Shown here one piece after another: positions 31,020-34,673 of a stretch of 64,000 nucleotides of DNA. The notes beneath the pieces were generated by a model. That model ran no database searches. It was given only the letters and a program-made list of their open reading frames with translations, and had not been told where the DNA came from. The translations under genes were made by a program, and so were the position numbers. Position 1 is the stretch's first letter; each line of letters begins with the position of its first letter. Source of the stretch: Xanthomonas sp. (GTDB lineage Bacteria; Pseudomonadota; Gammaproteobacteria; Xanthomonadales; Xanthomonadaceae); contig JADFDQ010000002.1 of the NCBI GenBank assembly GCA_018262705.1, positions 239,248-303,247 of the forward strand. Reading direction: 5' to 3'.

Positions 31020-31430
31020 ATGATCAATTTCGAACAAATCCGCCAGCATCTGCAGTCCGCCGGCTACCACCTGTTGCTGGAAGAGCCCGGACTGGCCTGC
31101 GTCGAACTGTCGCTCGGGCAGGGCAAACGCCATCAGGCCATCTTCCTGGCCGAACTGCAGGACGACGACGGGCGCCGGTATCTGCGGGTGAGCACGTCGA
31201 TCGCTCCGATCACCGGGCTGGATGCGCGCAAGGCGCTGGCGTTCAACTGGGAAAGCCGGGTCGGCTTCCTCGCCATCGGCGAACTCGACGACGTGCGCTA
31301 CCTGCAACTGTGCGAAAACCGCCCTTACGACAGCCTGCTTCCCGCCGAAATCGACCGTCTGATTCTGGAAATCGGCGGCACCGGCGATGCCATGGAAAAG
31401 CCGCTGTCGGCCGGCGGGGATTTGCTGTAG
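31020..31430 (+). CDS. Hypothetical protein, possibly YbjN/type III chaperone-like fold
   Basis: Small alpha/beta pattern (QAIFL, YLRVSTSIAP, ALAFN...GFLAI); family assignment tentative; 3' end lies in the left direct repeat. Confidence 0.5.
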   Translation: MINFEQIRQHLQSAGYHLLLEEPGLACVELSLGQGKRHQAIFLAELQDDDGRRYLRVSTSIAPITGLDARKALAFNWESRVGFLAIGELDDVRYLQLCENRPYDSLLPAEIDRLILEIGGTGDAMEKPLSAGGDLL

Positions 31431-31436
31431 CCGACG
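31408..31436 (+). repeat. Left 29-bp direct repeat (attL-like), contains the stop codon of the upstream gene
   Basis: Exact match to 33495-33523; flanking bases differ. Confidence 0.95.
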
Positions 31437-31679
31437 CGCTAGAGTGAGCGCTACCGCGCAGACGCACGATCCAAGCAGCTAGCATGGGGATGCGAGAATT
31501 CGCTGTCCCGGTGCAGATGCGCGAAACGGGCGGGCATGGAACTTCCGCGGTTGAAGACCTCAGGGTAGGGCGGGCGCCGCGCAGGGGCAAGGCTTGACAG
31601 CGGCGATCTCCGGTAGCGGCGCGCCGAGGATCGGATTAGTCGCATCGTCAATGCTGCGAGCATCGACCGCAGGCGTCGA

Positions 31680-31707
31680 TCAATATTGACTATTGATTTT
31701 GAAATCA
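31680..31707. promoter_or_regulatory. AT-rich promoter/operator-like region with two palindromes
   Basis: TCAATATTGA (31680-31689) and TGATTT-TG-AAATCA (31694-31707); TTGACT at 31686. Confidence 0.4.
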
Positions 31708-31723
31708 GCTATTTTCACGACTT

Positions 31724-32293
31724 GTGCCTGAATTCGCGTCATGGGGAAGGCACTCGCAGGTCGGCGGCAATCCGTCCTGCGAAGCATCCGCGTCGGACAA
31801 ACCGCACGGCGTGCGCATCCGCTACATGGGCGGCTGCCGCTGCGCGCCGTGCCGTTCGGCCAACACGGCCTACGAAACGCAACGCGCCAAAGCGCGCAAG
31901 GCCGGCGACTGGAATGGCATCGTGCCCGCCGACGCTGCGCGCGACCACCTCCACAAACTGCGCCGCCAAGGCATCGGTCGGCGCACCGTGCAGGCGTGCA
32001 CCGATGTCGGCGACACCGTGCTCAGCCAAATCATCAGCGGCAAGAAGACGCGCATCCGCGCGCGCACCGAGCGCCTGATCCTGCGTGTGGGCAAAGCCCA
32101 AGCCGCCGACCATGCGCTTGTCTCCGCGGAACGCTCACGCCGGCTGATCCAGCTGCTGCTCGAAGAGCAGTACACCGAGGCCTACCTGGCCAAGCGGCTG
32201 GGCTACAAGAACCACTACTTGCAATTCGGCGCCGTCATCACGGTGCGCAACGCGGCGCGGATCAAGCGGTTGTATCTGGAGCTGACATCATGA
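31724..32293 (+). CDS. Phage-like protein with HG-x5-Y-x2-GCRC-x2-C motif and two HTH-like segments
   Basis: KPHGVRIRYMGGCRCAPC; later HLHKLRRQGIGRRTV...LSQIISG and YLAKRLG; start uncertain. Confidence 0.6.
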   Translation: MPEFASWGRHSQVGGNPSCEASASDKPHGVRIRYMGGCRCAPCRSANTAYETQRAKARKAGDWNGIVPADAARDHLHKLRRQGIGRRTVQACTDVGDTVLSQIISGKKTRIRARTERLILRVGKAQAADHALVSAERSRRLIQLLLEEQYTEAYLAKRLGYKNHYLQFGAVITVRNAARIKRLYLELTS

Positions 32294-32313
32294 CGCACGC
32301 CACCGCCACGCAC

Positions 32314-32763
32314 CTACGCCGCGCGCCGCGCCTGTTCGGCTTCCCAGCCCTTCAGCGCCAGCAGCACCGTGCGCGGTACCGGGCGTGCGCCGGTGCGGTA
32401 TTGGCTGACGGTGCGGCGGGTCATGCCGATGGCCTCCGCCGCCTGCGCCAAGCTCAAGCCGTGCCTGTCCTGCCAGCGGCGGAAGGCCAGCGTATCGGCG
32501 CGGCCTTCCTGCTCCAGCGCCATCTCCATCACGCGGTCGGCATCCAGCCCTTCGCCATTGGGCCACTCCAACGAATGACCCCAGTCGCCGACCGCCACGC
32601 GGCGGAAGAAGGCGCGGTCGCGCAGTGGTGCGAACACGGCGAAGCGTTCCGGCAGTTCGGACACGTCCACCCGCACCACCTGCCCGCCGGTGTAGGCCAC
32701 TTCCAGCGCCAGACCGCGCAGCGGCTTGACGGATTCGATTCGGTTGACGTTTTGCTTGCTCAT
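32314..32763 (-). CDS. DUF2442 plus C-terminal HTH putative antitoxin
   Basis: FAPLRD..FF..V.V..WG..LEW..GLDAD, then GLSLAQAAEAIGMTRRTVSQY. Confidence 0.82.
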   Translation of the reverse strand: MSKQNVNRIESVKPLRGLALEVAYTGGQVVRVDVSELPERFAVFAPLRDRAFFRRVAVGDWGHSLEWPNGEGLDADRVMEMALEQEGRADTLAFRRWQDRHGLSLAQAAEAIGMTRRTVSQYRTGARPVPRTVLLALKGWEAEQARRAA

Positions 32764-32766
32764 GGC

Positions 32767-33003
32767 TCACCTCGGCGGCGGATTGTTCATGCGGTCCCAC
32801 TCGGCACGGACGGCGGCGGCATTGGCCGTCACCCAGGCAACAGCCTGCGCGATCACGTCAGCAGGCACGCCGGAGTTGACCACCGTGCCGTCGATGCCGA
32901 CCGACGCACGGCCATCGGGATGCAGGACGTGGGCATGAACGGGCGGATGTTCGCTGCCCTGCACCTTGATGATCCAGCTGCGCGCGGAGTGGATTTTGCC
33001 CAT
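32767..33003 (-). CDS. DUF4160 family putative toxin
   Basis: EHPPVHAHV, terminal AEWDRMN; directly upstream of DUF2442; ATG at 33003. Confidence 0.82.
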   Translation of the reverse strand: MGKIHSARSWIIKVQGSEHPPVHAHVLHPDGRASVGIDGTVVNSGVPADVIAQAVAWVTANAAAVRAEWDRMNNPPPR

Positions 33004-33009
33004 GTGCGA

Positions 33010-33038
33010 ATTATGGAGAAATAATTTCTCCATGTCAA
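33010..33038 (-). promoter_or_regulatory. Sigma70 promoter (TTGACA-17-CATAAT) overlapped by a perfect 21-bp palindromic operator
   Basis: -35 at 33038-33033, -10 at 33015-33010; ATGGAGAAAT-A-ATTTCTCCAT at 33013-33033. Confidence 0.8.
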
Positions 33039-33057
33039 GCGCCGTGTATCGGCGCGG

Positions 33058-33087
33058 TTGACAACGCGCTGGATTCGGGGCGATGCT
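33058..33087 (+). promoter_or_regulatory. Divergent sigma70-like promoter for the c4-like/bro transcript
   Basis: TTGACA at 33058-33063, GATGCT 18 nt downstream. Confidence 0.5.
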
Positions 33088-33149
33088 TGCCGTGCAGCCG
33101 CAGTGCGGTTGCCGGGAATCTTGGCAGTGACCCGAAATCCAGGCGCACA

Positions 33150-33191
33150 GAAAAGAGCGCCGATGATCTCCATTGGCGCTCTTTTCGTTTC
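33150..33191 (+). terminator. Intrinsic terminator/attenuator hairpin in the leader
   Basis: GAAAAGAGCGCC / GGCGCTCTTTTC 12-bp stem followed by GTTTC. Confidence 0.6.
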
Positions 33192-33216
33192 TGTGCGTGC
33201 GCTGCCCGCAGTTTGC

Positions 33217-33285
33217 GGCGGGCGGCGCGGGGGCACCTTCGGGTGCGTCGGTCCTGGCCGATCTGCCAACCCCGCGTCGTCCGCC
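33217..33285 (+). ncRNA. P1 c4 / P4 CI-like antisense RNA
   Basis: 16-bp closing stem (33217-33232 with 33270-33285), GCACC-UUCG-GGUGC hairpin, second hairpin, unpaired CUGCCAA complementary to TTGGCAG (33121) and TTGGCA (33293). Confidence 0.72.
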
Positions 33286-33335
33286 ACCCAGCTTGGCAAT
33301 GCGGTGGCGGACTCCATCACTTCCAGGAGTCCGAG

Positions 33336-33500
33336 ATGAACGAAATCACCATCTTTGGGTTTGAAGGCCGGGTTGTCCGCACCGTGGTGCTGGACGAGGA
33401 GCCGTGGTTCGTTGGCCGGGACGTGGCTGACATCCTCAGCTACGCCGACGCTACCAACGCGCTCAAGCAGCTTTGTCGTGGGGTGGTGAAATACCGGCCG
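33336..33500 (+). pseudogene. Truncated Bro-N (phage antirepressor) gene
   Basis: MNEITIFGFEGRVVRTVVLDEEPWFVGRDVADILSY..NALKQLC with GGAG RBS; Bro-like sequence ends inside the right direct repeat. Confidence 0.85.
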
Positions 33501-33523
33501 GCGGGGATTTGCTGTAGCCGACG
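33495..33523 (+). repeat. Right 29-bp direct repeat (attR-like)
   Basis: Exact match to 31408-31436. Confidence 0.95.
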
Positions 33524-33551
33524 TCATCGCGCCGAATCGACGCAGCCGCGC

Positions 33552-34673
33552 TCAGTCCCAGCCCGCCAGCATCAGGAACTTGTAGAACAGCCAGGCCACG
33601 GTGCCCGAAGCCGGGATCGTCAGGATCCACGCCCAGACGATGCGCTCGATCGTGCCGAGCTTGAGCCGACGCGGATTCTTGGCAAAGCCCACGCCCATGA
33701 TCGCGCTCGACACGGTATGGGTGGTCGAGACCGGCATGCCGAAGTGCGCCGCCGCCATCAGCACCGTGGCCGAACTGGTGTCCACCGCGAAGCCGTCGAG
33801 CGGATGCAGCTTGACCATCTTGTGGCCCAGGGTTTTGATAATGCGCCAGCCGCCGGACGCGGTGCCGCAGGCCATCACCAGCGCGCAGGTGACGATGATC
33901 CAGTCGGCGACGTCACTGCCGGCCGAACGCTCGGGATGCATGAAGGACAGGAACCAGGGCAGGCCGTCCAGCGCGCCGGAGGCTTCCGCACCGACCAAAG
34001 TCAGCGCGATCACGCCCATGGTTTTTTGCGCGTCATTGTGACCATGCGCATAGCCCATGTAGGCCGCGGAGCAGATCTGCAGTTTGCCGAACAGGGCGTT
34101 GATCCAACGCGGGCGCGCCAGCCTGCGCAGCGCGCCACCGCTGCGTTCCAGCCCGCGGATCAGCACATACAGCAGCACCATCAGGATCAGCCCCAGCAGG
34201 AATCCGGCCAGCGGCGAAGTCACCATCGGCACCAGCACCTTCCACAACAGACCTTTGCTCTGGGTCCAGCGCTCGGCGGCCTGCACCCAGATCAAGGAAT
34301 TCCAGTTGCCGTGCGAAGCCGACAGCGCCGCGCCGCACAGTCCGCCGATCAGCGCATGCGAGGACGACGAAGGCAGGCCAAGCCACCACGTCACGAGGTT
34401 CCAGACGATCGCGCCGAGCAGGGCCGCCAGCACCAGCTGGGAACTGGCCGCGACCACCTCGGTATTGACGATCCCGGTGGCGATCGTTGCCGCAACCGCG
34501 GTTCCGGTCAGCGCGCCGAGCATGTTCGTGGTAGCCGCCAGACCCACCGCCTTCCCGGGCGAGAGCACCTTGGTCGCCACCGAGGCTGCGATCGAATTGG
34601 CGGTGTCGTGGAAGCCGTTGATGAACTCGAACACGAGCGCGGCGGCGATCACCACGAGGACTAAGGTCAGCAT
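33552..34673 (-). CDS. PiT family inorganic phosphate transporter
   Basis: NGFHDTAN and GHNDAQKTMG signature motifs, PVSTTH. Confidence 0.93.
   Translation of the reverse strand: MLTLVLVVIAAALVFEFINGFHDTANSIAASVATKVLSPGKAVGLAATTNMLGALTGTAVAATIATGIVNTEVVAASSQLVLAALLGAIVWNLVTWWLGLPSSSSHALIGGLCGAALSASHGNWNSLIWVQAAERWTQSKGLLWKVLVPMVTSPLAGFLLGLILMVLLYVLIRGLERSGGALRRLARPRWINALFGKLQICSAAYMGYAHGHNDAQKTMGVIALTLVGAEASGALDGLPWFLSFMHPERSAGSDVADWIIVTCALVMACGTASGGWRIIKTLGHKMVKLHPLDGFAVDTSSATVLMAAAHFGMPVSTTHTVSSAIMGVGFAKNPRRLKLGTIERIVWAWILTIPASGTVAWLFYKFLMLAGWD

Follow-up and report, generated by a model that had tools for sequence, protein, structure and literature searches.

The closest described relatives of the locus analysed here are the toxin-antitoxin (TA) pairs that combine a DUF4160 toxin with a DUF2442 antitoxin. 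In the DhiT/DhiA pair of Dickeya dadantii 3937, the toxin gene precedes the antitoxin gene on a shared transcript; DhiT poisons both Dickeya and E. coli, an effect that DhiA neutralises (PMC8198452). With a 100-bp fragment from upstream of dhiTA, the antitoxin gave about 50% repression and the complex a stronger effect, which ranged from 70 to 99% across the three systems tested (PMC8198452). A DUF4160/DUF2442 'persistence-enhancing module' of a Thermus thermophilus plasmid stabilises plasmids, and its first gene is tolerated only in the presence of the second (PMC12724237). Transcription starts and operators are mapped in neither paper, and the word 'leaderless' does not occur in PMC8198452. 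Here we describe a divergent member of this family, encoded on the minus strand at 32314-33038 of a 64,000-nucleotide stretch of Xanthomonas sp. DNA (the window). The initial annotation of this DNA treated DUF4160/DUF2442 as a merely predicted TA pair, which is outdated given the validation of DhiTA in D. dadantii and on the Thermus plasmid.

We read the locus, with a probability of about 0.75, as a self-contained type II TA cassette of the DhiT/DhiA family that moves horizontally, in which the toxin would be expressed leaderless and a palindrome inside the promoter would serve as the operator bound by the antitoxin. Judged by its Pfam matches, the cassette is a member of the DhiTA family in a variant layout not described for that family. 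It shares with DhiTA the Pfam pair and a bicistronic operon that starts with the toxin gene and in which the two genes are separated, or overlap, by a few nucleotides (nt). Unlike DhiTA, its antitoxin has an extra C-terminal helix-turn-helix (HTH) of the XRE type, which brings it to 149 amino acids (aa) compared with 76-107 aa for a stand-alone DUF2442 protein, and its toxin is shorter (78 aa) and begins with MGK, not MPxIS. The features are as follows.

33038-33033, minus strand: -35 hexamer TTGACA, at -35 to -30 when the A of ATG 33003 is +1
33033-33013: perfect 21-bp (10-1-10) palindrome ATGGAGAAAT-T-ATTTCTCCAT, half-site GGAGAAAT, putative operator for an antitoxin dimer, centred at -20
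Between 33033 and 33015, minus strand: 17-nt spacer TGGAGAAATTATTTCTC separating the -35 and -10 hexamers
33015-33010, minus strand: -10 hexamer CATAAT, at -12 to -7, overlapping the right arm of the palindrome
33003-33001, minus strand: toxin ATG and predicted transcription start (A 33003 = +1), from promoter geometry and comparison
32767-33003, minus strand: DUF4160 (DhiT-like) putative toxin, 78 aa plus stop, Pfam PF13711
32773-32770, minus strand: Shine-Dalgarno (SD) sequence GAGG of the antitoxin gene, 6 nt before ATG 32763
32314-32763, minus strand: DUF2442 (DhiA-like) antitoxin with C-terminal XRE-type HTH, 149 aa, from Pfam; putative autorepressor

Promoter, putative operator and start codon of the toxin gene

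The minus strand reads GC-TTGACA-TGGAGAAATTATTTCTC-CATAAT-TCGCAC-ATG-GGC-AAA, so that six nt (TCGCAC) separate the -10 hexamer from the toxin ATG at 33003. The initial annotation had seen here a near-consensus promoter with a 17-nt spacer and an expected +1 at about 33003, a palindrome filling that spacer, and no visible SD, and the analysis bore out all three. A consensus scan scored the promoter at 11/12. It was the sole minus-strand promoter-like site within 31500-34000, a region that held 3 such sites on both strands compared with 0.3 expected from shuffles. The whole genome (2.49 Mb, 65.3% GC) contains just 5 sites at 11/12 and 24 at 10/12; therefore, the toxin promoter is among the strongest sigma-70-like promoters of the assembly. 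The perfect 10-1-10 palindrome overlaps the last base of the -35 hexamer and the first three bases of the -10 hexamer. At its centre stands T when the minus strand is read and A when the plus strand is read, the latter being the form in which it was originally written. A genome-wide search for further copies of the operator, allowing up to 3 mismatches, found none besides this one. The 20 nt before ATG 33003 contained none of the SD-like motifs searched for (AGGA, GGAG, GAGG and longer forms). Because the promoter puts the A of the ATG at the canonical +1 position, the toxin mRNA would have neither a 5' leader nor an SD.

We compared this layout with two sets of loci. First, a scan of one genome per species gave 41 loci with relatives of the toxin, and a search of viral contigs added one related locus, making 42. 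The 41 relatives come mostly from metagenome-assembled genomes of Burkholderiales, Nitrosomonadales and Methylococcales, with one cultured strain, Simplicispira metamorpha DSM 1837 (L020). The median pairwise toxin identity between loci was 56%, and no flanking gene was common to more than 3 of the 42 loci. Since the flanking genes differ among loci, the conserved upstream elements belong to the cassette itself. Second, as a control, 300 genomes of the same class were searched with the Pfam model; DUF4160 was present in 85, and the best 30 loci were taken. These are canonical members with the N-terminus MPxIS...DHxPPHFH.

The 70 nt upstream of the toxin gene show a near-universal order in the relatives: a -35-like hexamer (TTGACA, TTGATA, TTTACA or TTGCGA), the palindrome, a -10 hexamer (TATAAT, TACAAT or TATTAT) over its right arm, a short gap and the ATG. 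The gap was 6 nt in 28 loci, 7 nt in 6 and 8 nt in 2. Thus, with the best -35/-10 pair taken, a -10 hexamer (TAnnnT) lies 6-8 nt before the start in 36 of 41 loci; in the canonical set, this arrangement occurred in 0 of 30. Among the 27 loci that aligned without gaps, the mean information content was 0.12 bit per position from -70 to -41 and 1.05 from -40 to -1. In this profile the -35 falls exactly at -35 to -30, with its TT and final A kept, and the -10 exactly at -12 to -7, whereas positions -5 to -1 are fixed in number and not in sequence. A single one of these positions is biased: -1 is a pyrimidine in 38 of the 42 loci (25 C, 13 T; naive p = 6e-8) compared with 16 of 30 canonical loci, and -5 to -2 are unbiased. 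Bacterial RNA polymerase prefers a pyrimidine at -1 and a purine at +1 of the start site. One clade of Methylococcales (L009, L011-L013) has its palindrome shifted upstream by 3 nt, yet still a gap of 6-7 nt from -10 to ATG; the constraint on the distance to the start codon is therefore separate from that on the operator.

The start region differs from the canonical loci in two further respects. SD-like motifs (AGGA, GGAG, GAGG and longer forms, positions -20 to -3) preceded the toxin gene in none of the 42 subfamily loci (0/41 genome loci), whereas 22 of the 30 canonical toxin genes had one (Fisher p = 3e-12); the studied gene, with its leaderless geometry, is thus unlike canonical DhiTA loci. 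In addition, the toxin start codon was ATG in 39 of the 41 genome loci, or 40 of 42 with the viral locus, compared with 20 of 30 (Fisher p = 0.003). The leaderless toxin start proposed in the initial annotation is thus supported by the comparison, in the gap, the pyrimidine at -1 and the missing SD alike. It also fits the share of 14% leaderless mRNAs given for the Xanthomonas order (PMC3300014).

The palindrome is as widespread as the promoter. Its family consensus, TAGAGAAAT-N-ATTTCTCTA, stands between the -35 and -10 hexamers in about 40 loci, and in most relatives 7-9 of 9 symmetric pairs of the arms are complementary. Symmetric double changes occur: the studied locus has TGGAG...CTCCA, about 10 loci have TAGGG...CCCTA, and L013 has CGTAG...CTACG, as does L009 with one mismatch. 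The partner in roughly 35 loci is a DUF2442-HTH protein of about 144-166 aa with a near-invariant HTH, whereas the canonical partner is a stand-alone DUF2442 protein of 76-107 aa; all 29 partners found at the 30 canonical loci lack the HTH. The near-invariant HTH segment parallels the near-invariant half-site across loci. Because no DNA-binding protein other than DUF2442-HTH accompanies the palindrome, we infer that it is the repressor. This joint distribution supports autorepression through the antitoxin HTH, which had been put forward from the single locus. Taken together, the short MGK-type toxin, the HTH-fused antitoxin and the predicted leaderless promoter with its conserved palindrome go together and, on these comparisons, define a distinct subfamily.

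The recognition helix of the HTH was also compared with operator variants across the related loci for covariation, and no clear pattern emerged. In three Gallionellaceae/Nitrosomonadales metagenome-assembled genomes (L033, L035, L036), the left inner half-site is TAGGGTTTA in place of TAGGGAAAT, and the recognition helix reads SKYRTG in place of SQYRTG. This may be a change of specificity, in three loci that are closely related and too few to count.

The toxin and antitoxin genes

The toxin matched Pfam DUF4160 (PF13711) with 33.5 bits (cut-off 23, E 4.9e-8) over profile positions 11-64 of 65. Its His-rich core (EH-PP-H-H) is intact, with E18, H19, P20, P21, H23, H25 and H28. An AlphaFold2 model of the toxin (predicted local distance difference test, pLDDT, 88) has five strands and two helices. 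Foldseek of this model against the PDB gave no fold match (best E 0.7), and a profile search of PDB sequences with the toxin gave no match. HIT-like proteins were considered as fold relatives and rejected, with a template modelling (TM) score of about 0.43 that is not significant. For DUF4160 in general, PMC12065111 gives no structural homologue and treats it as an effector domain. PADLOC reported no defence-system match at the locus. We infer the toxicity of the 78-aa protein from homology.

The toxin gene is broken in at least five relatives. In L040, L041, L042, L043 and L045, it is truncated or frameshifted, with 33, 64, 74, 59 and 6 readable codons, respectively, and the promoter and operator are kept. 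In at least L041 and L042, an intact HTH-antitoxin gene stands beside the broken toxin gene. Decay of the toxin with retention of the antitoxin is the usual path of TA decay and would be expected of a real toxin.

The antitoxin matched Pfam DUF2442 (PF10387) with 39.3 bits (cut-off 23.9, E 7.7e-10). Its residues 94-137 match HTH_31 and HTH_3, and residues 9-144 align to residues 11-145 of PDB 2AUW (NE0471) with an E value of 2e-24. The HTH segment ...RRTVSQYRTGARPVPRTV... is nearly invariant among the relatives, with the pattern AIG-[LM]-[TS]-RRT-[VI]-SQYRTG-x-RPVPRTV across loci. The toxin stop codon TGA (32769-32767) and the antitoxin ATG at 32763 are separated by a 3-nt gap; in the relatives, the distance between the genes ranges from -4 to +12 nt. 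At least 22 of 40 relatives have an SD-like motif ahead of the partner gene, which is an undercount as some starts are mis-assigned. A consensus scan of 31500-34000 found no internal promoter for the antitoxin. At its 3' end, the antitoxin gene converges with the phage gene phrog_1590, with 20 nt between the stop codons (32294-32313), and a terminator scan of 31500-34000 found no terminator-like site between the two genes.

These features suggest the following mechanism. Transcription would begin at A 33003 or no more than about 2 nt away. The antitoxin would bind the 21-bp palindrome centred at -20 as a dimer, probably with the toxin as co-repressor as in DhiTA, and occlude RNA polymerase, giving negative autoregulation. 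Ribosomes would initiate on the toxin by the leaderless route and on the antitoxin at its own SD, both on the one mRNA. In proteobacteria, leaderless initiation (on a 5'-terminal AUG, by the 70S or initiation factor 2 (IF2)-dependent route) is weaker than SD-led initiation. In E. coli, a leaderless message has to begin with the AUG and is initiated with comparatively low efficiency (Brock et al. 2008, as cited in PMC8630535 and PMC3300014). Such a handicap would hold toxin synthesis below antitoxin synthesis despite the toxin-first order.

Genomic setting and alternative readings

The cassette lies in a short islet with phage-derived content.

31408-33523: islet of 2.1 kb with a perfect 29-bp direct repeat at each end (31408-31436 and 33495-33523)
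31724-32293, plus strand: phage gene phrog_1590, within the islet
33211-33291, plus strand: C4 antisense RNA (RF01695, 65 bits), within the islet
From 33336, plus strand: truncated Bro-N antirepressor gene, first approximately 55 codons, within the islet

The joined flanks of the islet are contiguous in about 35 of 40 genomes of the same genus, and homologues of the toxin were found in 0 of 36 species of the genus; the islet is therefore a recent insertion. Within the order, the search gave one weak match only, and plasmid records searched at 1e-8 held no toxin homologue. Between the cassette and the C4 RNA, the plus-strand region 33058-33197 looks like a phage immunity leader: an isrK-like match at 33094-33186 (23.9 bits, weak and below the gathering score) ends in a terminator hairpin at 33150-33186 with a 16-bp stem, and the C4 RNA lies just downstream. 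A promoter-like site TTGCCC-18-AATAAT (9/12) is present on the plus strand at 32996-33025. Read in reverse complement, toxin codons 2-3 and the middle of the palindrome make up this site; since both are conserved, it is present in most relatives by construction. It would point at the C4/antirepressor remnant, under the same operator.

Several points weigh against the reading of the locus as a leaderless, autorepressed TA cassette. First, a few relatives deviate in spacing. The gap from -10 to ATG is 12 nt in L014 (L014:2182-2254), and in L038 a tandem duplication (CTCTCACAT/CTCTCACTAT; L038:2931-3003) sets the ATG 17 nt from the -10. Second, covariation between the arms of the palindrome is modest: one-sided changes are about as frequent as symmetric ones, and many loci are asymmetric at one position. 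Third, the related loci are phylogenetically non-independent, which makes the p-values given above optimistic. Fourth, the toxin is a divergent member of its family, with a Pfam score of just 33.5 bits and no matching NCBIfam model. Finally, PMC3300014 describes weak SD use in Xanthomonas, where leaderless messages make up 14% of mRNAs, and leaderless mRNAs may be well translated in the host lineage, which would weaken the argument from stoichiometry. We also noted that in L021 (L021:2931-3003) the palindrome lies 11 nt further upstream and a new TACAAT stands 8 nt before the ATG.

Among the alternatives, the best placed, although an unlikely one, is that the pair does not act here as a growth-arresting TA system and is instead a regulator with an accessory protein, or a defence or abortive-infection module toxic only on infection. 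The divergence of the subfamily would fit this, as the toxin has a weak Pfam score and lacks NCBIfam, PADLOC and PDB-fold matches; so would the position of the cassette in a phage remnant and the use of DUF4160 as an effector domain in the Menshen defence system (PMC12065111). However, the His-rich core is kept, the domain pairing, gene order and tight coupling are those of the validated DhiTA, and several relatives carry broken toxin genes.

It is also rather improbable that the promoter is real and transcription starts a few nucleotides earlier (A 33005 or G 33007, for example), leaving an SD-less leader of 2-4 nt. RNA polymerase varies its choice of start by 1-2 nt, and the gap is 7 or 8 nt in seven relatives and 12 nt in one. 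Nevertheless, the modal gap is exactly 6 nt, and the conserved pyrimidine(-1)/A(+1) pair marks the A of the ATG as the start. Leaders of 2-4 nt, moreover, behave functionally like leaderless mRNAs.

There is very little to recommend the idea that the palindrome is an RNA hairpin of a longer transcript, or that a regulator of the host or of a phage binds it, such as one from the neighbouring phage immunity remnant. As RNA, the 41-nt stretch 33045-33005, which spans the palindrome and its flanks, can fold with a minimum free energy of -12.1 kcal/mol. In addition, the C4 antisense RNA and antirepressor module adjoins the palindrome, and a plus-strand TTGACA at 33058-33063 stands back to back with the -35 of the TA promoter. 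The hairpin is unlikely because conserved -35 and -10 hexamers always frame the palindrome, no T-run follows it, and one-sided changes in its arms produce A-C mismatches, not G-U pairs. A tie between the palindrome and the phage C4/antirepressor switch was rejected: C4 RNA was present in 0 of 20 related loci searched, and the palindrome is kept although its neighbours differ almost everywhere and are not conserved. The sole DNA-binding protein that accompanies it is the HTH-fused antitoxin.

The weakest alternative, hardly credible, is an 88-aa toxin that begins at ATG 33033, on a transcript initiated further upstream, which would make the palindrome a coding or leader element: the frame is open from that ATG and the database cluster of the toxin is called at 88 aa, as are three homologues. 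However, of the 42 loci, 27 carry a stop codon in frame among the 12 codons that precede the conserved ATG, typically TAA in the middle of the palindrome, and 78 aa is the length called for most homologues. Conservation also ends at about -40, ATG 33033 falls within the -35/spacer of the only promoter found, and 33003 is where both the Pfam alignment and the family N-terminus MGK start. The initial annotation had itself raised the use of ATG 33033 as the case that would count against it, and the upstream stops speak against that use. Gene callers predict the longer protein (MEKLFLHNSH...) in the studied genome, and the affected proteins are P0001, P0011, P0021 and P0022. The ten extra 'codons' are the operator and the -10 hexamer read in frame. 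The ATG is present at 33033 because the local operator variant reads ATGGAG, not ATAGAG. On the comparison of reading frames, the 88-aa call is an annotation artefact that recurs in the subfamily; with ten operator-derived codons placed on the toxin in this genome and several relatives, the call needs correction.

Comparison with known systems

DhiTA has recently been validated but is mechanistically blank, and the analysis defines a subfamily with a portable promoter-operator of about 36 bp. It makes testable predictions: the operator TAGAGAAAT-N-ATTTCTCTA and a transcription start given to the nucleotide. The antitoxin type of this subfamily also has a solved, unpublished structure. Like the studied antitoxin, NE0471 of Nitrosomonas europaea (PDB 2AUW, unpublished structural genomics) joins a DUF2442 N-domain to an HTH; unlike the studied locus, NE0471 has no reported function, partner or DNA site. 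The HTH of NE0471 resembles those of Aca2, Aca10 and HigA2, which are dimeric palindrome-reading repressors (PMC9410881).

Given a leaderless toxin start and an SD-led antitoxin, one further proposal is possible but doubtful: the toxin:antitoxin ratio may be set at translation initiation, with the toxin made by the leaderless route only (favoured by 70S ribosomes and IF2, disfavoured by IF3) and the antitoxin by the SD route. If so, any shift between the leaderless and SD routes would alter the ratio and so serve as the trigger. Candidates would be changed ratios of initiation factors, cold, inhibition of the kasugamycin type, a damaged 16S 3' end and phage takeover of translation. The expectation in the initial annotation that leaderless toxin translation would respond differently to translational stress or infection is speculative.

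Two other genes in the same genome have a similar start region. The gene for a BrnT toxin (Pfam 1.1e-22; contig C14:3924-4234) is preceded by TTAACA-16-TATGAT, 7 nt and the ATG, without an SD, and its promoter spacer holds a perfect 12-bp palindrome, GCATTATAATGC. The gene for a MarR-family regulator of 157 aa (contig C2, minus strand, ATG at about 93978) starts 7 nt after an 11/12 promoter, TTGACA-17-TATAAA, and probably encodes a further leaderless autoregulator. Three of the genome's 29 strongest promoter-like sites have an ATG 6-8 nt after the -10 and an open reading frame of at least 60 aa, and these are the studied toxin, BrnT and MarR. Two unrelated toxin-first cassettes with the same design are thus present in one genome. 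If control at translation initiation proved true, this layout would be a design principle for toxin-first cassettes, with the unrelated BrnT gene laid out alike.

Leaderless genes under promoter-overlapping operators are known elsewhere. In lambda cI (transcribed from PRM) and in paaR2 of paaR2-paaA2-parE2 from E. coli O157:H7 (PMC8630535), transcription starts at the A of the AUG and the operators overlap the promoter, as predicted here. In those systems the leaderless gene encodes the repressor or antitoxin, whereas here it would be the toxin that is leaderless and the repressor-antitoxin that is translated from an internal SD. In Mycobacterium tuberculosis, many antitoxin-first TA operons are leaderless. 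In gene order, the cassette is like HigBA, MqsRA, HicAB and BrnTA, where the toxin precedes an HTH or ribbon-helix-helix antitoxin that represses through a palindrome overlapping the promoter. For MqsRA, an excess of antitoxin is attributed in PMC6918082 to extra antitoxin-only promoters. Unlike MqsRA, the studied cassette has no internal promoter in the region scanned, and the solution proposed for it is a translational handicap of the toxin. A leaderless start for the toxin combined with an SD for the antitoxin would thus be a suggested answer to how toxin-first operons could achieve antitoxin excess.

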